Below, piece by piece: positions 2,207 to 46,770 of a DNA stretch of 64,000 nt. How positions within the stretch are numbered: position 1 is the stretch's first letter; the number at the start of each line of letters is the position of its first letter. The DNA is taken from contig OZ024741.1 in the NCBI GenBank assembly GCA_964016885.1, positions 295,120,001-295,184,000 on the forward strand. Direction: 5' to 3'. The notes beneath the pieces are model-generated. The model was given only the letters and a program-made list of their open reading frames with translations, was not told the DNA's origin and ran no database searches. Source of the DNA: Eledone cirrhosa (taxonomy: Eukaryota). The position numbers and the translations under genes were made by a program.

Positions 2207-2617
2207 CATCATCATCATCTTCGTTTAACATCCATCTTCCACGCTAGCATGAGTTAGATGGGAGTTGTCCCACTTGAGGCAAGATTGGTCGGGTGACCGT
2301 GCCTCGCTCATATAGGACTATCTGGCAGGTTTTCTATGGCTGGATGCCCTTCCTAACACCAACCAAGTTTACAGTGTAGAACTGGGAGCTTTTTACCGTG
2401 TTATCTACACAACCACATTACAGCGTGGACTGTGTCTTTTTTTTGTCGTGACACCTACACGATGTCGATTTCGCTCTCATTTATTTGGACTGGATGTTGT
2501 GGTACCAACTTTACAGAGAGAGGTTGAATTGGTGGTAGTGGGAGGATATGGTAGGAGTAGTGGATTGGGGTGTATATTTGGTTAAGAGGTGCCTACTGAC
2601 TGTAAGTTTCGCTTTAT
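2207..2617 (-). mobile_element. RTE LINE 3' UTR fragment
   Basis: (CAT)n followed by the reverse complement of the RTE 3' UTR. Confidence 0.85.
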
Positions 2618-2622
2618 ATGTA

Positions 2623-2670
<48 letters not shown>

Positions 2671-2671
<1 letters not shown>

Positions 2672-3298
2672 GGAAAAAATGAAACGAAATTTCATTTCCC
2701 ACTCTTAGTACGGCTGTTACTTAAATATAAATATGTACACGTGTACATACATATATGTATACAGACGTACAGTAGTATGTATATATATATATATACATAC
2801 ATGCACACATATATATACGTATGGATTCACCGAACATTTATTATAATGCTCGGTGTGTTTGTAAACAAACATCCTGTATTAAGCCGTAGTGTCCAGCAAC
2901 CATCGTTGCTCGTTTGTTCAACACTGACAAAGGAACACTGTACTAGTTTCAAGCTTATTAGCTATCGTCAGCAACGTATACCTTCCTGCCAGATTGTTGA
3001 ATGTATATACTTACCTTATGCATATTAACGGCTGAGTAGCCTAATTTGCATATCATCCGGGTGCACCGAAAACGATAAACGGAAAAAATGAAACAAAATT
3101 TCATTTCCCACTCTTAGTACAGCTGTTACTTAAATATAAGTATGTACACGTACATACATATATGTATACAGACGTACAGTAGTATGTATATATATATACA
3201 TACATGCACATATATATATATATATGTACGTATGGATTCACCGAACATTTATTATAATGCTCGGTGTGTTTGTAAACACACATCCCATATTAAGCCGA
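2671..3298 (-). mobile_element. Non-coding partial-tandem hammerhead element (family E), 409-nt unit x ~1.5
   Basis: CGGAAAAAATGAAAC.AAATTTCATTTCCCACTCTTAGTAC at 2671 and 3080; homologous to 34181-35174 and 37243-37950. Confidence 0.75.
2936..2976 (-). ncRNA. Minimal type-I hammerhead ribozyme (family E)
   Basis: Minus strand: CGTTG-CTGACGA-TAGCTAATAAGCTT-GAAA-CTAG-TA-CAGTG; palindromic CUAG loop III. Confidence 0.75.
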
Positions 3299-3317
3299 TA
3301 TAGATGTACATATATAT

Positions 3318-7555: not shown

Positions 7556-9681
7556 TTAATATCTGCCAACGTAATTGTATATAAGAACCTTAGTAATGAA
7601 ATAATTAATAATTTTAGTAAATTTTTCAAAATTCTTCATTAATTAACTGAAATAGAATGTATTTCATTAGAAATGCTGTCACAGAAGCGTTAATGATATA
7701 GTCATTCCTCTATCACTTCCACCAGTCTTGGCAGCTCCAAAAAGTGTTATAGACACTGCCCTACCTTTCCTAACAAAAGAAGTAAAGACCAAACAGATAT
7801 TGATTCTGTTTAATATTTGAAATGTCAGAATATGTCATTATAAAATATATATACATGTACTGAAACATTATACCTTCAACAGTCAACTGATGAGAAGGGA
7901 TTGTCCTGTGTTCTATCTGTTTTTCTGCTGTCTTCACCCACCCCTTTTTATTCATTTTATATATGTGTTAGAGAGAGAGGGAGATCTGTGTGTGTGAGAG
8001 AGAGAGCGAGAGATCGAACTGTTAAGTAAATAATTAGATTAACTCATTTTAGTAGGAGCATATCTGAAATAAAAGAGAATGTAAGGTCATGTGACTGATG
8101 TACCTTACAACATAATTGTTTATCTAAAAGTATGCGTGTACATGTATGTTGCTGTGTGTGCATGTATTGGTGTATGTTGGTGCATGTGTTTGTGTATGTT
8201 GGTTCATGTGTGCATGTGATAGTGTATGTTGGTTTATGTTGCTGTAAGTGTGTGCATGTGTTGGTGTATGATGGTGCATCTGTTTGTGTATGTTGGTTCA
8301 TGTGTGCATGTGATAGTGTATGTTGGTTTATGTTGCTGTAAGTGTGTGCATGTGTTGGTGTATGATGGTGCATCTGTTTGTGTATGTTAATGCATGCATT
8401 TGTATGTTGTTGTATATGTTTGTGTATGTGTGCACATGTATGAGCATCTCTTTACCTGATAATCTTTAGGTTAATTCTAGAAAAAAGAGGAAAGAGTTAT
8501 CAAGATGATTAAAAATTAATTAGAATATTTAATTATTTGCTATCTTATAAAAGGTATTGTAGGGTGAGTGGCTGCTTTTTCTAATTCATTGTCTGCCATA
8601 ACCAAGACGTTGACTATTATAATCCTCCTCTTCCGTTTCACATCATCACCATTATAACTATAACCATCTTCATCATGAGCATCATCATCATCACTACTAT
8701 CACTATCATCACCATCACCACTGCCATCACCATATCATCATCATCATCACTATATTCATCATCGCCACTGCCATCACCATGTCCTCATTATCATCATCAT
8801 ATTCATCACCACCACTTCCATCATCATATTCATCATCCCCACTGCCATCAACATGTCATCATCATCATCATCATCAACATTCAGGATTTGATGTATTTTT
8901 TCCTTATGCATGAATAAGTTGAACATAACTCTATAATTGATTCCTTTCAGCTGTTCCTGTTTATAGTCTTCACTGGATATATCACCCTTTGCTTTCTTAT
9001 TCCACAACTTCCTTGCTCTATCTACAGCTACCAATAGCCTGGATTATACCACCTTCTACAAATTTACAACACCTGTTCATTCCTCACATATCTCTTATCA
9101 TTGTGTGATATGTTTTCCCTCAATTCCTTGTGATTCCTAGTCATTTTCTTGGATTTATCAAAATAATTTTTTCATTTATAATTTATATAGGAGCTACAAA
9201 TTAATTCTCTCTAATAGATTGATATACATAAGAAAACATTGACTTTATAGGAAATTGATTTATTAGGGTCAGTTGAATCGTTCAAGTGTAACCTGGTGTC
9301 TTTTGATGTCCTCCGAAGGTTGAAAAGCTACATCCAATTTGGTGAATTTGAACTCCTGATAATATGTGATAAGACTATGTGAAGCATTTAGCCAGCCAAC
9401 TCTTCATCCAAACATACCATATATACTCATGTTGCATTGGTGGATATGTTACACTCCTATTATACACAAGATATTCTTGGCTTAATACTTATAAAGCTTT
9501 GTAGGTCCAGTAGATAAGTCACATGGTGTTTTTTATTTATACCAATTTATTTTTATAATGGAAAACGATATGACTTATTGATTGAATCAATCAACAAGAT
9601 CCCAGACCTCATTCGCTTACCGCGTAGGGTGGAACTTGTCAGTGTTTTCATTGGCTCATCGATTAGTTAGTGTATACAGTG

Positions 9682-10157
9682 TCATCATCATCCTCATTTT
9701 TACATCCATTTTCCCATACTTGCATGGGTTAGACGGGTCCTTGTTATCACAGCATCTCTTCACTTGCCACGTTTCTTTATCTCCTCTGTGATTCTCGCGA
9801 TTTGTAGTCATCTCTCACCACCTCTGCCCAGATCTTTCTCAGTTTACCACTGTTATCCACTGGCATTTCCTGGCACCTTTTCACCCATCAATCATCATCC
9901 ATGCATATCACATGTCCGTACCAATGCAGTCTTCTCTTTTGCACACCACCTTGGATTCCTCTTAAACCCAGCTTCTCCCTCAGTTCATCTAAGTTCTCTC
10001 ATATTAACGTTTCAGATCCAACAAAGCATGGCTGCTTCATTTCTCTCCAGTCTATGCATGTTTTCTATAGTCACTGCCCATGTTTCACTACCATGCAGCA
10101 TCACACTGTGCACATAGGCATCATATAGTCGTCATTTTGTACAGAGGGAGAAACCTT
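9682..10157 (-). mobile_element. Older RTE subfamily 3' fragment with short 3' end
   Basis: Minus strand encodes decayed KGFSL..RLYDA.V.SVMLHGSETWA and runs directly into ACCCGTCTAACCCATGCAAG...GATGATGA. Confidence 0.8.
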
Positions 10158-11136
10158 CATCATCATCATCATCATCAACGTTTAACGTCCGTGTTCCACG
10201 CTTGCATGGGTTTGGACGGGGGTATTCCCACTTGAGGCAAGAGTGGTTGTCTTGCTCGCATAGGACTGTCTGGCAGGTTTTCTACAGTTGGATGCCCTTC
10301 CTAACACCAACCACATTTACAGTGTGGGACTGGGAGGTTTTTACCGTGTTGCCTACACGGCCACATTACAGCGTGGACTGTGTGTTTTTTTGTCGTGACA
10401 CCTACACGATCTCATTTGTTTCGGCCTCGATGGCGCGGCACCAACATAACTTTACATAGAACGGGGTGGTGTGGATGGGGTGTGGGTGGTGGGACAGGGT
10501 GTATTTTGTTAGAGATGCCTACTGGCTGTAGTAGGTTTTACTATGTATTTAGGTAAGGCGGGTCTTCTCTGTTACTGAGTACCGCCAAAGGTCTCGGTCC
10601 AGTGACATTGTCTTGGAGAGGTGTAAGTGTGTGAGGTCAGAGTTTATCAGCTCGTCCCAGGATTTTCTAGGTCTGCCTATTCCGTGGCTACCGTCTATCT
10701 TTATTGCCCTGCACTTTGTTATACAGCTATCGACTTTCATGCGCATCACGTGTCCGTACCAACGTAGCCTTCTCTCGAGTAAACAACATCTGATCCCTCT
10801 TATCTCTAATTTTTTCCTTAGTTCGTTTATGCTTTGCCGTTCACGTATATTACTATTACACATCCAGCAGAGCATGCAAGGTTCGTTCCTCTCTAGTCTG
10901 CGTATATCCTCTGCGCACAATGCCCAGGTCTCACTGCCATGCAACATTGCTGTTTGTATGCAGGCATCATACAACCTGCCTTTCATTTTTAGGGAGAACC
11001 CTTTAGTGGCTAATAGTGGTATAAGCTCTCTGAACTTTTTCCATCCAGTTCTGACTCTAGCTACAGTACTTTCGGAGCACCCTCCCCCACTGCTGATTTT
11101 GTCACCCAGGTAACGGAAGCTGTCCACTATTTCTAT
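10158..11136 (-). mobile_element. 5'-truncated RTE LINE
   Basis: ORF 10549-11127 DSFRYLGDKISSGGGCSES...YGHVMRM; full 3' UTR and (CAT)n tail. Confidence 0.93.
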
Positions 11137-11193
11137 ATTTATATATATAAATACAAATATATATATATCATCATTTCATCATCATATATATAT

Positions 11194-11224
<31 letters not shown>

Positions 11225-11230
11225 CATGAA

Positions 11231-11428
11231 GAAGTTATATTTAATTTGTTGAGATTCCAACAAGCTTAAAAGTTTATAACTAATATAAAGCACACAACAA
11301 GTTACCAGAGTAAATATTCAATTTGTATTTTATCTGATGAAAGCGCACCAAGACTGCCTTGGCTGCCCTTGAAATATATATAATAAAATAATTATGGTTT
11401 TATAAATATAGTTTCCATTTATTAATAT
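11231..11428 (+). mobile_element. Solo PLE terminal-repeat remnant with inverted segment (related to the PLE at 24.8-29.1 kb)
   Basis: 11322-11428 matches 28873-28979; 11231-11303 matches the reverse complement of ~28997-29070. Confidence 0.75.
11326..11390 (+). ncRNA. Type-I hammerhead ribozyme
   Basis: TATTTTAT-CTGATGA-AAGCGCACCAAG.actgc.CTTGGCTGCCCTT-GAAA-T-ATAT-A-TA-ATAAAATA; 8-bp perfect stem I. Confidence 0.8.
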
Positions 11429-14325
11429 ATTGTATATATATATATATGCATAGAGATATGTAAAATCCTGACTGCAGCACCAAGTGAGCTCAGCACTGTA
11501 GACTCTATTTATACATATATAAATAAAATTACATATACATATATGTTTGTGTATGTGTGTGTGTATATATATATATGGGGGGGGGGGGGCATGGAGATAC
11601 TGGGTTTGGTTTCCAAGCACACAGTTTGCTTACCAGGAGTGAAAGACCCTGAATACATTTTAGGGATCATTGAAAATCTATCTTGGATGAATGTACATGA
11701 ATGTAACCCCTATTTCTTAGTGTACTATCCTTTAAAAAAATAACTTTAAAACGAAGTCAGGGCTAGAGAGTTATATCAAAGCAGAGAAGGTAACATATGT
11801 GATAATTAAATGACTACAATAAAAGCGAGAGTTGCTGGCTAACAATATATTTAAATATTTCATGCTATTCTGATATATTGCGGTGAAGGGAGTCACATCA
11901 TCAGACACACAAAAGATTGCACTGTTATTTAGGAGTTTTGTTGCCTAGATAAAATCTGTCCAGTGATTCCTAAATTCGTTTTATATCCATCATTTATTTC
12001 ATGGTATCAAAATTTTTTTCACAATTCTTTGCAACCTGGTCACTGACACAGCTGTATTGGAACAGTGTTAGAGACAAAAAGTGCAGCACAATGAAAATTC
12101 TTAGTCTTTCAAATTGTAAAATCTTTGACTACTTTTCTTTAATAATTTTTACAACAAATATTTCATTGCTCTTTTCTTTTCTTTTCCAGGTAAGTGTACT
12201 TTAAACCTATTTTGGACTTTCATTTTCTTGTCATTTGCAGTTTGAAAGGTAAGTCTTATCTTCTATGCATCAGAGAGACGTGATTAAAACTTTATGAATT
12301 GGAAATAATTAGAAAACGTATCATTTCAAGTCAGAAAAATGTTCATATTTTTTCAAACATCTATAACATTTGATGTATCTTTGATATTATTTCATTGAGA
12401 GAGACATGTAACAATTTATGTGTTGAGTAGTGGTGTTGTGGTTATTTGACCATTTTATTAATTTTTGGTTGGTTATTCAATGGAGAGGATGTACTGTCTA
12501 TAGTGTTTTTTTTAATTGCCCTATATATCTAGATATGTATGGAATGAGGAGGTTAATACTTTCAGTCTTCTAGCTCAGTATTCCAGTTCTCAATGTTTCA
12601 CTATAACTATATCCCATCCATGATATCTCACATTCTGCAACTCACTTCTGTTTACTACTGTTTATTGTCATTTACACAATTTTATTCATAAATCATCAAT
12701 CATTTCATACTATTACTTTAGCCAGAGGTTTTTGTTATAATTATTTTCAAGTTCATATATTTATGTTATTTTTAATTTTAGTTGATAAATGTTTTTTTTA
12801 TTGATTTTTGTGCTGATGATCCGAATTGGTGATCATACCCATGAGAGGGAATTTGGGTTCTACAAGTTACTACAGATAATCTTGCAGATAACTATTTATA
12901 GATAAAACATAGGCTGGGATCGAATTACATAAGGATGATTACATTTCAAAATGTGGTTGGTATAATGTGGTCAATGGGGAGATCACTGAAATATTCAAGG
13001 CAATGTATACATTAAGTTGATTCATTGATCTAACATGTTCAATATTCTATTATTCAGATGTCAAATTGTACCCTAGTCAAATTTGTCTATCAGAATAGTC
13101 CATTTATTTGGTTCATTAAGTTCGACACATTCGTTAAAGTATATATGTCTTGCTAGTGTCAATTTTATATGTACATGACATCAATTTTTCCATCATCAGT
13201 ATATACAAATTGATTTCTGCTTTAAATAGTTTGTACATTGTTTTGTAAACTAAATATATTATGACTACATACTATCTTTATGTAAACAGGTCTGAAAAGG
13301 TGAACTCAATAGAAATAGTGTAAAAGTGTAATTATAGCATATGCCTGAAACTACAATCAATACATATATAAGCAAACAAGTACCTGTCCACAGGTCAACA
13401 CAGTCATCTATTGGCTGTTATGATTCATGGGACATTCTATTAGAAGAATCAAGGATGATTTCAGTCAGTAATACTGTCTGTACTCTCAGGTCTCAAATAA
13501 TGTGGTTGGAATAAGCAGGGAAATTGGAAAATTGGTAGATTTTCTAGGTTGTCTCCATTGATTCTTAAGAAAAAACAGAATTAATCATCTAGTTTACATA
13601 TTGAGACCCCAATCTATCTTATTTGTTTTATAACGTATCAGATTTCTAGTAATGTACATTTTTTTGGCCACGTATAATGTTTTTTTAATGCATAAAGAAT
13701 ATTACTTAAAATAAAGAACATTACTTAAAATAAAATTTCATCAGAGATACATTAGCAAAGTTTAATAAGTGGGTGGGTTGGAATAAGAGTGGTGATGTTG
13801 GAAAAAAATCTGAAAAATTATTAAGCTGGGTAGGACAATTATTTGAGACCTAAGAGACCACAACATGGGCAAATAAGTAGATCCAGAGAGAATCCAAGCT
13901 ATGTGAAACACATTGTTAGTTGCTTTAGTCATGATGTGCACCCTTGAAGAGGGTGAAATATATGAGGCTTCCAAGGACAGAGTAGCATGGAGATATGTTG
14001 CTGATGGAGGCAAATAATTTAAAAAAAGATAAACACCTGGATTTACCTGCAGACTAATTGATAACTTGAGCTGCAAGATTGTTCTCATGATTCTGATACC
14101 TGTAAAAGAAATACAGAATCTACTATTTCTATTCTAGTCTCATAATCTGAGACTTTAGACAATCTATTAACATAATTTACTGTTTTTTTCTGTGTATTTA
14201 TCTCCTTTATTTATATATATTTATTTAGTTTTCATATGTATTTATACGTTTTTATTTACATTTATTTAACGACATAGCTGTTTTTATTTTCAAAATTAGT
14301 ATTCATTCTAGTATTTTATACAAGC

Positions 14326-14756
14326 GTGGCTATGTGATTAAAGAACTAGATTCACAATCAGGAGGTTACAAGTTCAATTCCCAGACCTGGCAATGTGTTA
14401 TCTCCTTAAGAAAGACACTTTATTTCACATTGCTGCTTCTGCTAGGAGTTGTGACAGGGTGATGTGTTGTTTCCTTGAGCAAGACACTTTATTTCACATT
14501 GCTGTAGAAATGAGATGATAGGACTGGGGTCCCTATCATTCCACCGCAAAGTGGTCATGGAGGTGCCACGGCAAAAAAGCACCCAGCCCATACTGTAAAG
14601 TGGACATGTAGGCGCCACGGCAAAAAAGCACCCAGCACTCACTGTAAATGAGGTTGGTGTTAGGAAGGACATCCAGCTGTAGAAATCAAGCCAGAATCAG
14701 TTCCCGTCCCACCCTTGTAAGCAGGCAAAAGTGGATGTAAAATGATGATGATGATA
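14326..14756 (+). mobile_element. Family A CORE-like SINE (old head plus younger body), (GAT)n end
   Basis: CCTTGAGCAAGACACTTTATTTCACATTGCT, hairpin TGATAGGGAC-TGGG-GTCCCTATCA, RTE-like tail. Confidence 0.8.
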
Positions 14757-14769
14757 ATATATATGTATG

Positions 14770-14821
<52 letters not shown>

Positions 14822-14840
14822 TGTATATATATGTATATAC

Positions 14841-14886
<46 letters not shown>

Positions 14887-15067
14887 GTATGTATATATAT
14901 ACATATGTATGTATATATATACATACATATGTATATATATACATATGTATGTATATATATACATATGTACGTATATATATATATATGTATATATACACAT
15001 ATGTACGTATATATATATATGTATATATATACATATGTATGTATATATATATATATATATACATATG

Positions 15068-15116
<49 letters not shown>

Positions 15117-15360
15117 GTATGTATGTATATATATATGTATATACATACAAATATATATATACATATGTATGTATATATATAAGTATATATGTATGTATAT
15201 ATACATGTATATATGTATATATGTATGTATATATGTATGTATATATATATGTATGTATATATATATGTATATATGTATGTATATATACATGTATATATGT
15301 ATATATGTATGTATATATGTGTGTATATATATATATATATATGTATGTATATATATATAT

Positions 15361-17443
<2,083 letters not shown>

Positions 17444-17482
17444 GATATATATATATATATATATATTTATATATGTATGTAT

Positions 17483-17705
17483 ATCATCATCATCATCATC
17501 GTTTAACGTCCATCTTCCACGCTTGCATGGGTTTGGACGGGGGTTTTCCCACTTGAGGCAAGATTGGTTGTCTTGCTCGTATAGGACTGTCTGGCGGGTT
17601 TTCTACGGCTGGATGCCCTTCCTAACACCAACCACGTTTACAGTGTGGACTGGGAGGTTTTTAACCGTGTTACCTACACAGCCACCTTACAGCGTGGACT
17701 GTGTT
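17483..17705 (-). mobile_element. RTE 3' UTR fragment, tail-to-tail with the previous copy
   Basis: (CAT)n followed by the reverse complement of the 3' UTR. Confidence 0.88.
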
Positions 17706-17754
17706 TTTTCTTTCTTTTTTTTTATATATATGTATATATGTATATATATATATG

Positions 17755-17827
<73 letters not shown>

Positions 17828-17850
17828 GTATATATGTATGTATATATATA

Positions 17851-18110
17851 TGGAGGCACATGGCTTAGTGGTTAGGGTATTGGCCTTGCAATCGAAAGGT
17901 TGTGAGTTCAATTCTCAGACCGGGTGATGTGTTGTTTCCTTGAGCAAGGCACTTTATTCCCAGTTTACTCAGCTGTAGAAATGAGATGATAGGGACTGGG
18001 GTCCCTATCATTCCACTGCAAAGTGGTCGTGGAGGTGCCACGACAAAAAAGCACCCAGCACTCACTGTAAATGAGGTTGGTGTTAGGAAGGGCATCCAGC
18101 TGTAGAAATC
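17851..18110 (+). mobile_element. Family A CORE-like SINE, 3' end interrupted
   Basis: TGGCTTAGTGG A box, GAGTTCAATTC B box; near-identical to 3318-3640. Confidence 0.88.
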
Positions 18111-18162
18111 AACTATATAACACACGTACAAATCCAAAGAGATGTCTGAAATGTATGGCCTT

Positions 18163-18242
18163 ACACACGCTGATGAACCAAGGTTATTCCATTTCTGTCA
18201 ACAAATTACTGGCGAAACATCTCTTTGGATTTGTACGTGTGT
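18163..18242 (+). ncRNA. Type-I hammerhead ribozyme in a PLE-like remnant (18111-18410)
   Basis: ACACACG-CTGATGA-ACCA...TGGC-GAAA-CA...TG-TA-CGTGTGT; 7-bp perfect stem I. Confidence 0.72.
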
Positions 18243-18462
18243 TATATAGTTATAGAGGTATTTATTTATGCTTTAATTTATATTTTTAATTATCATGTCT
18301 ATAGTCTGCCTTTCATAGGTTATAGATTCTATACACTGGTGGTTTTTTCCTTGTTTTATTGATAGCGCACTGTATATCTCTCTCTGGTGTGTTACCTTTT
18401 CAACATATTGTATATATATATATATATATATACATATATATATACATTAATATATACATATT

Positions 18463-19480
<1,018 letters not shown>

Positions 19481-19714
19481 TATATGTATATGTATATGTA
19501 TATTTATGTATATATATGTATATGTATATTTATGTATATATATATATATGTATATATATGTATATATATATATGTATGTATATATATGTATATATATATA
19601 TGTGTATATATATATATGTGTATATATATATATGTATGTATATATATATATGACATACATATATACATACATACATACATATATATATATACATACATAT
19701 ATACATACATACAT

Positions 19715-20581
19715 ATGGTGGCTGCCAACTCGTTTTTCGAGTACGGCCACTACTTTATATCCATGTAGGAGAACCCCTACCGATGCGCTGAACGAGTGTG
19801 ACTTTTTAGTCCAGCCAGCGACTTGAAAACTCTGGTACAAACACTACACTTGTGACAATTATTGACACATAGTGCTGGGCCCATGGTACCATGTAACGAC
19901 AAGTGCAGAGAGATCTCCAGATATAAAGCAATGCCTGTGCCGTGAAGCTTTTATAGTGAACAAAGGCATTGCACAAAGCCAGTCCCACTCTCTTAACCAA
20001 GATGATATTTACCAAAAAGAAGAACAAGGTCGGGTCGTTGGCGAATAAACTGACAACCCCACCAAGGTTTCTTGGTGAGGAGGGTGACTTTGGACATCCT
20101 GCGGGACTAAAAACAAAACCTGTCAAAGGGCAAAGGAGCTCTTAAGAGTCAATGGCCATCCAAAATCACCGGGAGAGATGACCACTTAGCCTTTGTCAAG
20201 ACAGAATTCTAGGAGAAGGAAAACTCTGATATAACACCTGCAACCCTGATGGTATCCAATGATGTTGACTTGTTCTTCTTTTTGGTAAATATCATCTTGG
20301 TTAAGAGAGTGGGACTGGCTTTGTGCAGTGCCTTTGTTCACTATAAAAGCTTCACGGCACAGGCATTGCTTTATATCTGGAGATCTCTCTGCACTTGTCG
20401 TTACATGGTACCATGGACCCAGCACTATGTGTCAATAATTGTCACAAGTGTAGTGTTTGTACCAGAGTTTTCAAGTCGCTGGCTGGACTAAAAAGTCACA
20501 CTCGTTCAGCGCATCGGTAGGGGTTCTCCTACATGGATATAAAGTAGTGGCCGTACTCGAAAACGAGTTGGCAGCCACCAT
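19715..20581. mobile_element. Two divergent copies of the RTE-derived short element forming a ~313-bp inverted repeat
   Basis: 19715-20028 is the reverse complement of 20269-20581; the + copy (20029-20581) has CTAGGAGAAGGAAAACTCTGA and encodes [22 protein letters not shown]. Confidence 0.8.
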
Positions 20582-20600
20582 ATATATATATATGTGTATA

Positions 20601-20647
<47 letters not shown>

Positions 20648-20682
20648 ATATATGTATATATATATATATATATATGTGTATA

Positions 20683-20721
<39 letters not shown>

Positions 20722-20724
20722 ATA

Positions 20725-20755
<31 letters not shown>

Positions 20756-20793
20756 TAGGTATAGGATTATCCAAGATGTAGTGATGGTTAATC

Positions 20794-20905
20794 TGCTCTG
20801 AGGAAACAGTGGTCACAGCATTGGATATTCGAGTTCTGCAAATACTTGTGAATTTGCACGTAGCGGAACTAGGCTGCAGCACCACCGTGGAAACACTTGT
20901 AAGCA
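20794..20905 (+). ncRNA. Type-I hammerhead with branched long stem II in a ~200-bp island (20756-20956) within (TA)n
   Basis: TGCT-CTGAGGA-AACAGTGGT...ACCACCGTG-GAAA-CACTTG-TA-AGCA, followed by AATAAA. Confidence 0.68.
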
Positions 20906-20955
20906 CACGGAATAAACTACCTTTTTATGATGTCTACCTGTTATTATTCATTCTT

Positions 20956-22040
<1,085 letters not shown>

Positions 22041-22041
22041 G

Positions 22042-22180
22042 TCATCATCATCATCATCGTTTAACGTCCATCTTCCATGCTTGCATGGGTTTGGACAGGA
22101 GTTTTCCCACTTGAGGTAAGATTGGTTGTCCTGCTCGTATAGGACTGTCTGGCGGGGTTTCTACGGCTGGATGCCCTTCC
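22042..22180 (-). mobile_element. RTE extreme 3' end fragment
   Basis: (CAT)n-CGTTTAACGTCCATCTTCCATGCTTGCATGGGTTTGG. Confidence 0.85.
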
Positions 22181-22836
22181 ACAATCATGAAATCTCTCAC
22201 TGGTACTGCTAAACTATAGAAAAGTTTAATAGGTGGGGCGGGATACTAAATACGAGATTGTAGTGAAAGAATTTTATGAGTTAGTAGTACTCGGCCTAAT
22301 CTATCTTACAATGACAGGTCAACAAGTAGGGGGCCAAAATACTAAAAAAAAAAAAAAAAAAAAAAAATCCAAAACTAATACGAAATATTAATTCAGAATC
22401 CCGAAAATGAATACTAATACGATATATAAGAGTACCGCTACAATACATAAATTCTAATGCAAACTACATAAATGCTTGTATGATATATAAGAAAAAATTA
22501 ATACGAAAAATTATTGTAGGGGAATAGTAACCAGAAATTGTGTTTTTTTATATTTTTAACATTCTTATTTTTCTATATAGATTTACTCCATATAGATCTA
22601 CTTATTGTTTCGACTTCCTTCCCCCCCTCCCCCTCTTGACCTCTTATCGTTAGAATTCTGCTGTAGTCGTCACTTTCAACGCACGACTTGGTTTCCTCTA
22701 CTCCCTCTCCCTCTTTCTTTACTGGCAAGTTCAGCTACCCCTTCCTACCACAAAATGCCATGATAGAATTATGTGTCTCAACAACAAACTTTTGACCAAT
22801 CCTTGTGACAATCACTTTTTCCATATATGGAATATT

Positions 22837-22932
22837 ACCCCCTGAGAAGCTCAGCTATTCATTTACCAGGATAAAAATTTTCATTTAGTCCAGAATTAGC
22901 CGTCGAAACTGCTTGAGCTCAGCCGTCGGGGT
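22837..22932 (+). ncRNA. Degenerate hammerhead-like motif at the end of a probable PLE terminal repeat (~22181-22945)
   Basis: ACCCC-CTGAGAAG...C-GAAAC...GTC-GGGGT; core deviates from CUGANGA. Confidence 0.5.
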
Positions 22933-22978
22933 CCTACTCGTTCCTATATATACATATATATATACATACATATATATG

Positions 22979-23027
<49 letters not shown>

Positions 23028-23028
23028 G

Positions 23029-23060
<32 letters not shown>

Positions 23061-23064
23061 TGTA

Positions 23065-24115
23065 TAGATTTTGAGTATATGTTGGTTGTATACTCTCTGG
23101 CCTGGTACATAATCAGGAAAGTACCACCCGATAAAGAGGGATCTTGCATATGCAAACTATGCCTGAACGAGACCCTCGAGATACTAAGAGGTGGAAGCGG
23201 ACTGATAAACCTCAGAACCGACTTCTTGGGGACATGCAGACACCTTAGAGCCGGGACCTTCCTCAAGATATATGGACGGTAGCAACACAAGAAGATGTGA
23301 ACTCCCCTCAAGCTATAGGGACTTCTACAGAACATGTAGACACCTCTCGGCCAGACCTCCCTCAAGCTATATGGGCAGTAAAAACACCCTAGGTTATGAA
23401 CTCCACTCAAGCTATAGGGAACAACCCAGGCTGAGCAGACACCATGATAGCCTAGAGATTGAATCGGACACAGCCATTATAATTTGGCCAACATCTATAT
23501 AACACAAACACATTTTAATTTACTTGATTTCTGATTTTCAAGTTCCAATTTTAAATCTTGATTTCTCTTTATTAATTTGTTATTTGTTTTCTGTTCTCTT
23601 CACTGTATCACCTTATATTTATTTTGAAGTTGAGATTGATTATAACACAAACACATTTTGTTTGATTATCTTATTTTAACATCTTGTTCCTCATACCAAT
23701 TTATCCAACATATTTCTGACCTTGAGATCGGTTATAGCACACAGAGACTTTATCCTACTTTATTTGAATCTTCATTTTATTTTTCACTTCTCCATATTCA
23801 TTTTCATTACCTTTTCACCAATTTTTCATTTATTCTTTATTCCTTATTCTCTATTTATTATTCATTTTCTGTTTTCTTCAAGTACATATGTTGTTGAGGT
23901 GTATAATATAATTTTCGAGATAATATCTCTTCTTCAGAGGAAAGTAAAGCTGTTAAACCAGTGTTCTAAATAGCTTTTCCTTTCAGCATGACTTGGCAAG
24001 CTATTTAGAACACTGGTTTAACCGCTTTACTTCCCTCTGAAGAAGAGATATTATTTCGAAAATTAAGGACATTTAAATAAATCTAAGGTAAAAGACTAAT
24101 TGTCAACAATATCTT
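23065..24115 (+). mobile_element. PLE 3' fragment (GIY-YIG C-terminus + 3' UTR)
   Basis: YSLAWYII...CKLCLNETLEIL...LINLRTDFLGTCRH aligns with the C-termini of the two large PLEs. Confidence 0.75.
24034..24068 (+). ncRNA. Very minimal hammerhead-like motif, inside a 68-bp inverted repeat
   Basis: CCT-CTGAAGA-AGAGATATTATTTC-GAAA-AT-TA-AGG. Confidence 0.5.
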
Positions 24116-24397: not shown

Positions 24398-24877
24398 TTA
24401 TATATATTTGTATATATATATGTATATATATATTTATATATATGTGTATATATATATGTATATATATATTTATATATATGTATATATATATATATGTATG
24501 TATATATATATTTATATATATATGTATGTATATATATATTTATATATATATGTATATATATATTTATGTATATATATGTATATATATATTTATATATATA
24601 TGTATATATATATTTATATATATATGTATATATATATTTATATATATATATGTATATATATATTTATATATATATATGTATATATATATTTATGTATATA
24701 TATGTATATATATATTTATATATATATGTATATATATATTTATATATATATGTATATATATATTTATATATATATATGTATATATATATTTATATTGTTT
24801 AGGGCCTCATAACTTAACTATCACAGGGCCTCATTTGTCATAAATCCAGCACTGACAAGAGAAGACGTGCATACTCA

Positions 24878-27142
24878 ATGACACGCTACAGAAAAAAGAG
24901 AGCGCTTTACATTATAACTGAAAAAATGGAATTCTTTAAGATCTCTTCTTCTCTAAAAGACATACCTCTACCTAGGAACAAAGATTTTATTAAACAATTA
25001 ATAGAAAAATCAGACTCTTTTATAAGAAGAATCAGGTGGCGTGCTTTCCACTTTGATAAATCTAATCTAAATGAAAATGTTTCAAATCTGGTTAAAATTT
25101 TCAAATCTAAAAAAATCTACCCCCCAACAAACTACTAATGGATTTTGAAAATGATATCATATATATCATCCAAGGCATCAAATTCAAAAAAAACTTCAAA
25201 GGCCAGGATTACTTAAGAAGTATTAAGGATAATATTGAAAACTTGGAGAAAACAGAGAAAATTCTAGTGAAGTCGGACAAAACTAATAATCTTTATGGAA
25301 TACAAAAGGACATTTATAACGACCTTATATTGAAGGAACTAAGGAAAAAGTACAAGGTAGCAAATAAGGACGAACTTGAAAAACTGAATACAGATGCATC
25401 TTGTATAATGCATGAATTAGACATTGAGAATAAAACACAATCCTTCATGCCTAGGAAACCTAAGATCAATATGAAGGATCACAAAAGAAACTTTGAAAAT
25501 GATTTACCAGTCAGATTGATTGCACCATCTAAATCTGACCTGGGCAAACTTAGCAAAAATATTCTAGACAGAGTAATACAACAAATTAAAAACTTACCTA
25601 ATTTATCTTACTTAAAATTATGGAAAGGGACTAGTGAGGTTATCGATTGGTTTAAAGAAATTAAATATAACTATAATAATAAGTTTATTCAGCTGGATAT
25701 TGCTAACTACTATTCATCTATCACTCCTAATCTACTGAATAAGGCACTAAATTACGCATTTAAACATACAGACCTAACTAGCAATGAAATTCACATTATA
25801 TTATAGGCAAGAAAAACATTGATAGAATTTAATAACCAACTCTGGACTAGGGCAGATAGAAATAATAATTTCGACATAACTATGGGATCATCAGACTCAG
25901 CTCAGGTAACGGACCTTGTGGGCCTATTTATAATTAATTCGTTACATAGAAAAATACCAGGTGTAACCGGAGGCTTATATCGTGATGACATGCTTTTACT
26001 TATAGAAAATAATAGCTGTGAACTAAATAGAAAAAGAAAACAAATTATACAATTTTTTAATTACCTTAATCTAAAAGTAGAAATAGAGAATAACCATAAA
26101 ATAGTCAATTTTCTTGATGTAAATCTCAAGACATGTCTTCATTATCCATTTCACAAACTAAATGAGAACTTGAATTATGTTAATTTTAACTCTAATCACC
26201 CCAGATCTGTTAAAAATACTATAGTGAACTCTGTTCAAGAACGAATTTCAAGAATTTCATCTAATAAAAATATATTTGATGAAAAAGCGCAGTATTACAA
26301 CGAAGCGTTAAGTAGAGCTGGATATAGAAATAAAATTAAATACATCGATAATAATAATAATAAGCAAACTAACCAAAATAATAACAATTTTAATTATGGT
26401 AACAACTTTAACAACTATAATAGAAAACATTACAATAATTCAAAAACCCGAAAAAGAAATAGAACTAGAAATATATTATGGTTTGCTCCCCCTTTCTCAC
26501 TAAATATTAAAACCCCTATTGCTAAACTATTCTTTAAAGCTCTTGACAAACGCTTCCCTAGAACACATAAATATTACTCAATTTTTAATAGACATACTAT
26601 AAAATTAACTTACTCGTCCACCAAAAATTTAGCACAAAATATTAATAGAATTAATCATAGAAACTTAAAACCTAACCAAAATACCAATAATAACCCAAGC
26701 AATATTCAATTGAATAACTGTAACTGTAGAAATAAATCTAACTGTCCGTTAAATAACAACTGCTTAGCTAAAAATATAGTGTACAATTGTAATGTTAAAA
26801 CTAATTTAAATTCATTTAACTATGTCGGTTCTACCTCTACAGAATTTAAATTTCGCTTCAATAATCATAAAAATTCTTTCACAGATCCAAACAAAAAATC
26901 TTCAACTTCGCTATCTAGCCTACTATGGGACCTTAAACGAGATAATGTTAAATATTCGATGACTTGGAATATTATTTCATAAAGCTACTCCTTTTAATTC
27001 CTCTTCAGAAAATTGTGATCTTTGTATTGAAGAAATATTCTTTATATTAAAGTCCAAAAATTCCCTTAATTTAAGGAACAATTTATTCAGTTGCTGCAGA
27101 CATAGATTGAACTCAACGTTTAAATATAAATATAAAATGTAG
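24878..27142 (+). pseudogene. PLE RT-GIY-YIG polyprotein: frameshift ~25138, stops at 25804 and 26980
   Basis: QLDIANYYSSI, ITMGSSDSAQVTDLVG, GLYRDD, VNFLDV, CNCRNKSNCPLNNNCL, IVY...YVGST, CDLC...CRH. Confidence 0.9.
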
Positions 27143-45900: not shown

Positions 45901-46770
45901 TATACCACTATTAGCCGCTAAAGGGTTCTCCCTAAAAATGAAAGGCAGGTTGTACGATGCCTGCATACGAACAGCAATGTTGCATGGCAGTGAGACCTGG
46001 GCATTGTGTGCAGAGGATATACGCAGACTAGAGAGAAACGAAGCTTGCATGCTCCACTGGATGTGTAATAGTAATATACGTGAACGGCAAAGCATAAACG
46101 AACTAAGGAAAAAATTAGAAATAAGAGGGATCAGATGTTGTTTACTCGAGAGAAGGCTACGTTGGTATGGTCACGTGATGCGCATGAAGGACGATAGCTG
46201 TATAACAAAGTGCAGGGCAATAAAGATAGACGGTAGCCACGGAATAGGCAGACCCAGAAAAACCTGGGACGAGCTGATAAATTCCGACCTCACACACTTA
46301 CACCTCACCAAGACAATGTCACTGGACCGAGATCTTTGGCGGTACTCAGTAATAGAGAATACCAGCCTTACCTAAATACAAAGTAAAACCTACTACAGCC
46401 AGTCGGCATCTCTAACAAAATACACCCCCGTCCCACCACCCCCACCCCATCCACACCGCCCCTTTCAATGTAAAGTTATGTTGGTGCCACAACATCCAGG
46501 CCGAAACAAATGAGATCGTGTAGGTGTCACGTCAAAAAAACACACAGTTCACGCTGTAATGTGGCCGTGTAGGCAACACGGTAAAAAACTCCCAGCCCCA
46601 CACTGTAAATGTGGTTGGTGTTAGGAAGGGCATCCAGCTGTAGAAAACCCGCCAGATAGTCCTATGCGAGCAAGATAATCACTCTTGCCTCAAGTGGGAA
46701 AACCCCCGTCCAAACCCATGCAAGCGTGGAACACGGACGTTAAACGTTGATGATGATGATGATGATGATG
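42920..46770 (+). mobile_element. Near full-length RTE-clade LINE (5' boundary approximate)
   Basis: Single APE + RT ORF, 3' UTR, (GAT)n tail. Confidence 0.93.
43145..46375 (+). pseudogene. RTE APE endonuclease-reverse transcriptase with PHD-like insert; 2 frameshifts and 2 stops
   Basis: VGTMNVGTL, CCIQETRW, ISAYAPQ, AGDLNGHVG, QVDYIL, SQHRL; NYRGIKL, DLEKAFD, QGSVLSP, YADD; C-x2-C...C-x2-C..W...C...C-x2-C. Confidence 0.93.

Follow-up and report, generated by a model that had tools for sequence, protein, structure and literature searches.

Non-LTR retrozymes have been described from coral, mussel and axolotl as short, non-coding hammerhead repeats (PMC7229834; 10.64898/2026.07.22.740005). 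In these accounts, animal retrozymes yield abundant circular RNAs, and Penelope-like elements (PLEs) are the proposed mobilisers. A PLE origin has already been argued there, with the mechanism of mobilisation and the source of transcription left open. By a working definition, a retrozyme is active if two or more units, each bearing a ribozyme, follow one another (10.64898/2026.07.22.740005).

PLEs leave recognisable insertions, which form partial tandems with a 5'-truncated upstream copy and often an inverted piece; in several clades the preferred targets are microsatellites (PMC8557442). In an Anolis PLE, reverse transcription initiates inside the RNA, at a stem-loop downstream of the hammerhead, and the targets are AT-rich; cleavage by the ribozyme was dispensable for insertion in vitro (PMC11167929). 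Another hammerhead repeat, newt satellite 2, is reported to have an snRNA-type promoter (PMC2220036).

Here we describe a 409-nt family of repeats in a 64-kb window, which is the whole stretch of DNA that was analysed. Judged from its sequence, the family is probably an ORF-less animal (non-LTR) retrozyme, non-autonomous and likely mobilised by a microsatellite-targeting PLE. It shares with the described non-LTR retrozymes a non-coding unit in the range of 150-450 nt, a GC content under 45%, a canonical type I hammerhead, head-to-tail repetition and the presence of PLEs in the same genome (PMC7229834; 10.64898/2026.07.22.740005). The mussel repeats, at 350-390 bp, are close to it in length. 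It differs from them in that its loci hold 1.15-1.5 units and one ribozyme instead of dimers or arrays, and in the internal (TA)n and the 5' inversion; it is known here from DNA alone. A search of the cephalopod and octopus literature for hammerhead ribozymes, with most subscription journals outside its scope, returned a match that concerns other PLE clades. The word 'ribozyme' occurs 0 times in the main text of an octopus repeat annotation (PMC13282606), whose repeat libraries may already contain the family under an uninformative name.

The 409-nt unit and its copies

Copy A consists of a full unit and, upstream of it, a partial copy of its own left part, which is 92% identical to 2671-2886. 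The two parts (409 nt + 219 nt) amount to 1.53 units (Table 1). The original prediction of a unit repeated about 1.5 times, free of ORFs and containing an internal (TA)n, is borne out in each respect: the run is a (TA)8, and the longest ATG-started frames in A encode 83 aa (plus strand, across the TA tract) and 60 aa (minus strand), none of them meaningful. The window contains no tRNA gene, and thus no sign of a tRNA-type head.

Table 1. Positions of the 409-nt family and its elements within the 64-kb window.
Feature	Position	Strand	Details
Copy A, full unit	2671-3079	-	409 nt; 36% GC (35.7%); non-coding
5'-truncated partial copy of A, upstream	3080-3298	-	219 nt; ends 54 nt before the cut-site equivalent; without ribozyme
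(TA)n target tract at the 3' end of A	2615-2670	.	
Terminal hairpin	2672-2700	-	just inside the fixed 3' end
TA-rich self-complementary segment	2722-2822	-	internal (TA)8 at 2780-2795; 322 nt in B
Hairpin with invariant AUAAUA loop	2828-2855	-	3 double-sided changes, A vs C
Hairpin	2895-2910	-	present in B with different sequence (8/16 identical)
Extended helix I bearing the ribozyme	2917-3001	-	z about -3; -27.3 (minus) vs -18.5 kcal/mol
Type I hammerhead, one per locus	2935-2977	-	found by structural descriptor
Octamer block	3017-3052	.	octamer 3044-3051 and inverted octamer-like site 3018-3025; imperfect dyad, 18 bp apart
Copy B, second subfamily	34181-35018	-	full unit 34181-34945, partial copy 34946-35018; hammerhead core from 34817; octamer 34898-34905; (TA)16 at 3' end
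Inverted piece, 5' end of B	about 35117-35169	+	resumes at the stop of the partial copy (9-nt overlap), past a microsatellite spacer
Copy C	37243-37799	-	repeats B together with its flanks, beyond an N gap; same inverted piece downstream

Copies B and C belong to a second subfamily, with a unit of about 470 nt, to which A is 78% identical (319/409 positions of A). Over 369 nt, C matches B at 99.7% identity, and across the N gap the two have their left and right flanks in common. It is likely an assembly duplicate. C was therefore ruled out as an independent witness, leaving two independent copies, A and B. The N gap itself (about 36826-37026) is flanked by a long near-identical duplication (33973-36825 / 37027-40668) with very different microsatellite lengths, which is likely an assembly duplicate as well.

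Public DNA reads were used to assess the abundance of the family. Among 23 runs, none of them recorded as RNA, 20 contain part of the stretch and three, from one sample, contain at least half of the sampled words; four were examined in depth. The summed depth in run X1, which is not a copy number, reaches 1.5-1.6 million to either side of the ribozyme cut site and 0.56 million over the unit junction, compared with 2.3-3.2 million at the flanking interspersed repeat peaks and 0.08 million between repeats. Raw reads of X21, a reduced-representation library, number about 21,400 for the ribozyme, 25,600 for the right-hand repeat and 147 at 2522-2568. In order of magnitude, the abundance of the family matches that of the common repeats of the genome. 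Run X4, the one small-share run of another organism that was used, gives a few low-depth contigs over 2842-3053, too little for naming a range.

The reads also describe the structure of other copies. Loose ends in X21 match B-type sequence in 7,578-23,389 reads (among the 24 of 2,826 loose ends listed), so that B represents a second abundant subfamily and the family comprises at least two. The unit junction is deeply covered, without an ORF, in X1 and X3 (among the 15 of 319 joints listed). Loose ends at 3054 indicate that A lacks about 14 nt at this point, and that other copies return to the junction sequence and not to an ORF (again among the 24 of 2,826 listed). Between the two halves of A, 18 alignment columns differ. 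Among the 40 of 190 variant rows listed, the states of A at 2731, 2875, 3095 and 3121 are private relative to the majority, two in each half. On this pattern the halves likely began identical, and A is an old insertion.

Hammerhead motif and folding of the unit

A structural descriptor detects six hammerhead motifs in the window, three of them from the 409-nt family, compared with a mean of 0.04 (maximum 1) in 100 local shuffles. The minus-strand hammerhead originally placed at 2936-2976 corresponds to one of these matches. In A, helix I is formed by 6 bp (2977-2972 with 2940-2935) and is followed by CUGACGA (2971-2965), a 4-bp helix II on a U.U base, GAA (2950-2948) and the palindromic helix III ACUAGU (2947-2942), which has 2 bp and a palindromic loop. 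The predicted cut is after A2941, between 2941 and 2940. Rfam searches of the window gave no hammerhead at the gathering threshold (0 hits), nor at E<=10. The 72 sub-threshold matches within 2660-3310 also include no hammerhead; the best are microRNA models on the TA-rich segment, which we dismissed as composition effects.

The motif is well preserved between the subfamilies. Its core is conserved at 29/31 positions, compared with 78% for the whole unit. The earlier observation that stem I differs between copies and still pairs also holds: helix I reads ACGUUG/CAGUGU in A and AACGGUG/CAUCGUU in B. At 2937, most of the family (1.387 of 1.398 million in X1, among the 40 of 190 variant rows listed) carries a base that converts a G.U pair in helix I of A to G-C.

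The helix sizes (I 6 bp, II 4 bp, III 2 bp) fit the canonical dimer-type hammerhead of metazoans and not the minimal PLE type (PMC4209133, PMC6765202). In the axolotl retrozyme motif HHR_Amex2, helix II likewise stands on a U.U; this motif is described as cleaving weakly alone and well as a dimer (PMC7229834). In the 409-nt unit, the palindromic helix III of two molecules would form a 6-bp intermolecular duplex with a computed energy of -4.8 kcal/mol. One of nine Xenopus retrozymes cleaved in vitro (10.64898/2026.07.22.740005), so cleavage by the predicted ribozyme is not to be assumed. None of the three window loci (A, B and C) carries two ribozymes, or two consecutive ribozyme-bearing units. 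With a single hammerhead each, they cannot release a unit-length RNA by themselves.

The unit folds into a chain of hairpins. For its microsatellite-free part, the minus-strand z-scores are -3.9 in A and -4.2 in B, and the plus-strand scores are -2.2 and -2.4 (0 and 2 of 150 shuffles). Five of the six separately folded elements favour the minus strand in both A and B, one of them only marginally in A; the exception is the octamer block. Of 116 predicted pairs, 8 are changed on both sides between A and C, partly through misalignment, a count from two sequences that is descriptive rather than statistical. In the minimum-energy fold the catalytic core is mispaired, and a hammerhead-compatible fold costs 4.4 kcal/mol in A and 2.1 kcal/mol in B.

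Exact-pattern scans returned 0 loci in viral contigs, 0 in prokaryotic genomes and one in metagenome contigs (L001), unrelated to the family beyond the ribozyme core. The L001 motif, at 747-790 within a 1075-nt tandem repeat, has nearly the same core, including the U.U base of helix II and ACUAGU. TAACCC repeats lie about 60 nt downstream of this core, as described for telomere-associated PLEs. L001 also contains an octamer at 88-95, at another distance than in the 409-nt unit and likely by chance.

Other hammerheads are present on the plus strand of the window. A second family, at 11334 and 28885, consists of two copies that are 81% alike and lie near PLE-like ORF debris; helix II is long, and helix III is an 8-nt palindrome or near-palindrome. 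A third type I hammerhead, at 18111-18251 (core 18170), has a long helix III. Its 3' half is also present ahead of it in inverted orientation, an arrangement with the potential to block the ribozyme.

The octamer block and the promoter question

In newt satellite 2, an octamer has a role in the promoter. The octamer of copy A, originally described as lying about 70 nt 5' of the ribozyme, is 68 nt upstream of the hammerhead, counted from 2976, and the counterpart claimed at 34898-34905 is present in B. Copy C contains the octamer as well. The segment 3026-3054 is identical at 28/29 positions between A and C, comparable to the ribozyme core (29/31). The octamer-like half-site keeps its 18-bp spacing in both subfamilies, with one mismatch in each at differing positions. 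Within the dyad, the octamer arm is invariant. Its partner arm is changed at 3/11 positions, which breaks pairs; there is no compensatory change and no strand bias.

One reading of this block is an octamer-based promoter within the element, comparable to that of newt satellite 2, from which the family would be transcribed autonomously. Such a promoter would be compatible with mobilisation by a PLE and would compete with the retrozyme reading only on the source of the RNA. The identity of 28/29 in 3026-3054, within a unit that is 78% identical, argues in its favour, while the other hairpins drift and keep their pairing (8/16 and 18/26 identical). The invariant octamer arm, the pair-breaking changes in its partner and the lack of strandedness suit a DNA-binding site better than an RNA stem. 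The constant half-site spacing of 18 bp also favours the promoter reading. A plain RNA hairpin, which was also considered, is weakened by the absent compensatory changes and strand bias. A pile of X21 read ends at 3046 was set aside as evidence for conservation of the octamer, as it most likely reflects a restriction site of the RAD library.

The composition of the window argues against this reading. Eight octamers are found compared with 6.8 expected, a count reached by 41/100 shuffles, and 3.8% of 20,000 shuffled units contain the octamer. Conservation of an 8-mer between A and C is common (95/402 windows). The PSE is the essential core element of snRNA-type promoters. The best PSE matches in the unit have 3-4 mismatches, which is the level of shuffles, although the consensus is human and the PSE of the host may differ. 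STAF likewise gives no match above shuffle level with the human consensus.

The usual distance from octamer to transcription start is about 220 nt, so the start would fall downstream of the ribozyme. An invariant TATA-like 10-mer does lie about 205-235 nt downstream of the octamer, at 2837-2846 in A and 34664-34673 in B, about 100 nt downstream of the cut site. Its presence favours the promoter reading; however, it also forms a hairpin loop and contains AATAAA, and the spacing upstream of it is not fixed between A and B.

The pattern of the octamer block, as compared between two sequences, suits a protein-binding element. It is possibly part of an internal promoter, by analogy with the internal promoter reported for the terminal repeats of PLEs (pLTRs) (PMC8557442, PMC6765202). 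Some sequence-specific role is possible, given that the block is as conserved as the ribozyme core. On balance, we regard autonomous transcription from an octamer-based promoter as unlikely. We regard as equally unlikely the wider reading in which this abundant invertebrate retrozyme has its own promoter, built on an inverted octamer-type dyad with 18-bp spacing, that arose independently of newt satellite 2.

Comparison with newt satellite 2 leads to a similar result. Both are dimer-type hammerhead repeats in which an octamer is present. Here, a match to the human PSE consensus and a long array in the window are absent, and helix III has 2 bp, whereas that of satellite 2 has 1 bp with a tetraloop. 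The analogy is weak, and the 409-nt family should not be filed as satellite 2-like. The original interpretation is therefore retained as far as a non-coding, retrozyme-type hammerhead repeat with PLE marks is concerned, and its satellite 2-like snRNA promoter is not supported, with the PSE at shuffle level and the octamer at chance.

Insertion marks, Penelope-like elements and a proposed cycle

Both independent loci are partial tandems with a 5'-truncated upstream copy (2/2), and one of the two, B, has an inverted truncated 5' piece. The 3' ends of A and B, previously noted as a common left boundary, lie within 4 nt of each other. In 2/2 loci they lie 270 nt downstream of the cut site, immediately past the terminal hairpin, and continue into (TA)n. 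Any target duplication is masked by the microsatellite at the insertion sites.

These marks resemble those of Neptune-type PLEs, which have a C-terminal endonuclease (PMC8557442; PMC11167929). Partial tandems, a 5' inverted piece, microsatellite targets and a ribozyme upstream of a fixed internal 3' end are common to both. The 409-nt unit differs from them in the lack of an RT/endonuclease ORF and in its canonical rather than minimal ribozyme; the optional tail of 30-40 bp described for these PLEs is not seen in the two copies compared. The PLEs of Chlamys, such as MRC1, likewise include short non-autonomous elements with pLTRs and head-to-tail insertions; as described, their 3' ends resemble those of autonomous partners, they are mostly without hammerheads and their hosts are algae (PMC8557442).

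Coding PLE sequence is present in the window. A GIY-YIG domain (E 3.5e-7, Pfam) follows a CX4CXXC linker at 40504-41007 (+) and represents a Neptune-type fragment. Two of its three longer relatives contain an RT domain. The fragment and these RT-bearing relatives place coding PLEs in the same genome as the 409-nt family. No ORF combining RT and GIY-YIG lies between the repeats, as it would in an autonomous PLE, and no sequence link between the family and a coding PLE was found within the 64-kb window. The possibility that B is a terminal repeat of the nearby GIY-YIG fragment was rejected, as the two lie on opposite strands with kilobases of microsatellite and other repeats between them.

Further fragments were recognised by eye. 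An RT fragment at 42474-42683 (-), with 0 Pfam matches, is bounded by microsatellites, as is 40504-41007. The ORFs at 24818-26982 and 30973-32934 are PLE-like, also with 0 Pfam matches. The latter is a 653-codon frame on the plus strand within an element at 30415-34146 that has 468-nt flanking repeats, 97.7% identical, and a short inverted piece. Copy B and this PLE-like element share one (TA)n tract, in which they lie tail to tail. At 43519-46375, 15183-16843 and 18400-19356 are degraded frames of LINE-type endonuclease/RT and a frame resembling a Tc1/mariner transposase.

The unit could alternatively be the detached pLTR of a coding PLE, a passive product of truncation without a cycle of its own. 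Its parts, a conserved upstream block, the ribozyme and an internal 3' end, are arranged as in a pLTR, copy B lies amid PLE debris, and retrozymes of Xenopus are reported to share sequence with pLTRs (10.64898/2026.07.22.740005). However, both independent loci have the same junction, in which the 3' end of the unit is linked directly to its 5' start and no ORF intervenes, and this ORF-less junction is the one deeply covered in X1 and X3 among the 15 of 319 joints listed. The canonical helix sizes are also at odds with the long helix II and the G10.1-C11.1 pair of minimal PLE ribozymes, and the unit does not match the flanking repeats of the PLE at 30415-34146. We consider a detached pLTR quite improbable. 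Spread at the DNA level as a satellite or minisatellite with a relic ribozyme would fit the 18 differing columns between the halves of A, which indicate an old locus, and the local duplication at B/C, but is hardly credible in view of the dispersed copies, the fixed 3' end, the one 5' inversion, the 29/31 core across subfamilies that are 78% identical, and the minus-strand bias of folding.

A non-autonomous retrozyme moved by a PLE would have the following cycle. Loci with at least two ribozymes, none of which is in the window, would supply the source RNA. RNA from these multi-unit copies would be cut by pairs of ribozymes and likely circularised. A Penelope-type RT/endonuclease, for which a Neptune-type PLE is the best candidate, would then nick (TA)n DNA and, starting at the fixed internal hairpin, reverse-transcribe the RNA through more than one round. 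By analogy with the Anolis PLE (PMC11167929), the terminal hairpin may be the region in which reverse transcription starts. An insert copied simply from a monomer that the ribozyme had released would stop at the cut site. The insert does not end at the cut site, and read depth is level across it, which implies that the template kept an intact ribozyme site, as either a circle or an uncut multimer would. A religated circle is slightly favoured over an uncut linear multimer, which is nearly as plausible, because the repeats of the same kind in coral, mussel and axolotl give circular RNAs (PMC7229834). Copies A and B are likely dead-end products of such a cycle, as one ribozyme is unable to release a monomer.

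In this very abundant family, a unit with a canonical hammerhead of the retrozyme type bears PLE insertion marks, which makes it a convenient test case. Without a promoter role for the octamer dyad, it would be one more family of an established class. If the dyad were a promoter element, strong transcription would be explained without read-through from the host. The whole cycle of one family could then be read from the genome: promoter, dimer cleavage, circle and internal priming by a PLE at TA repeats.
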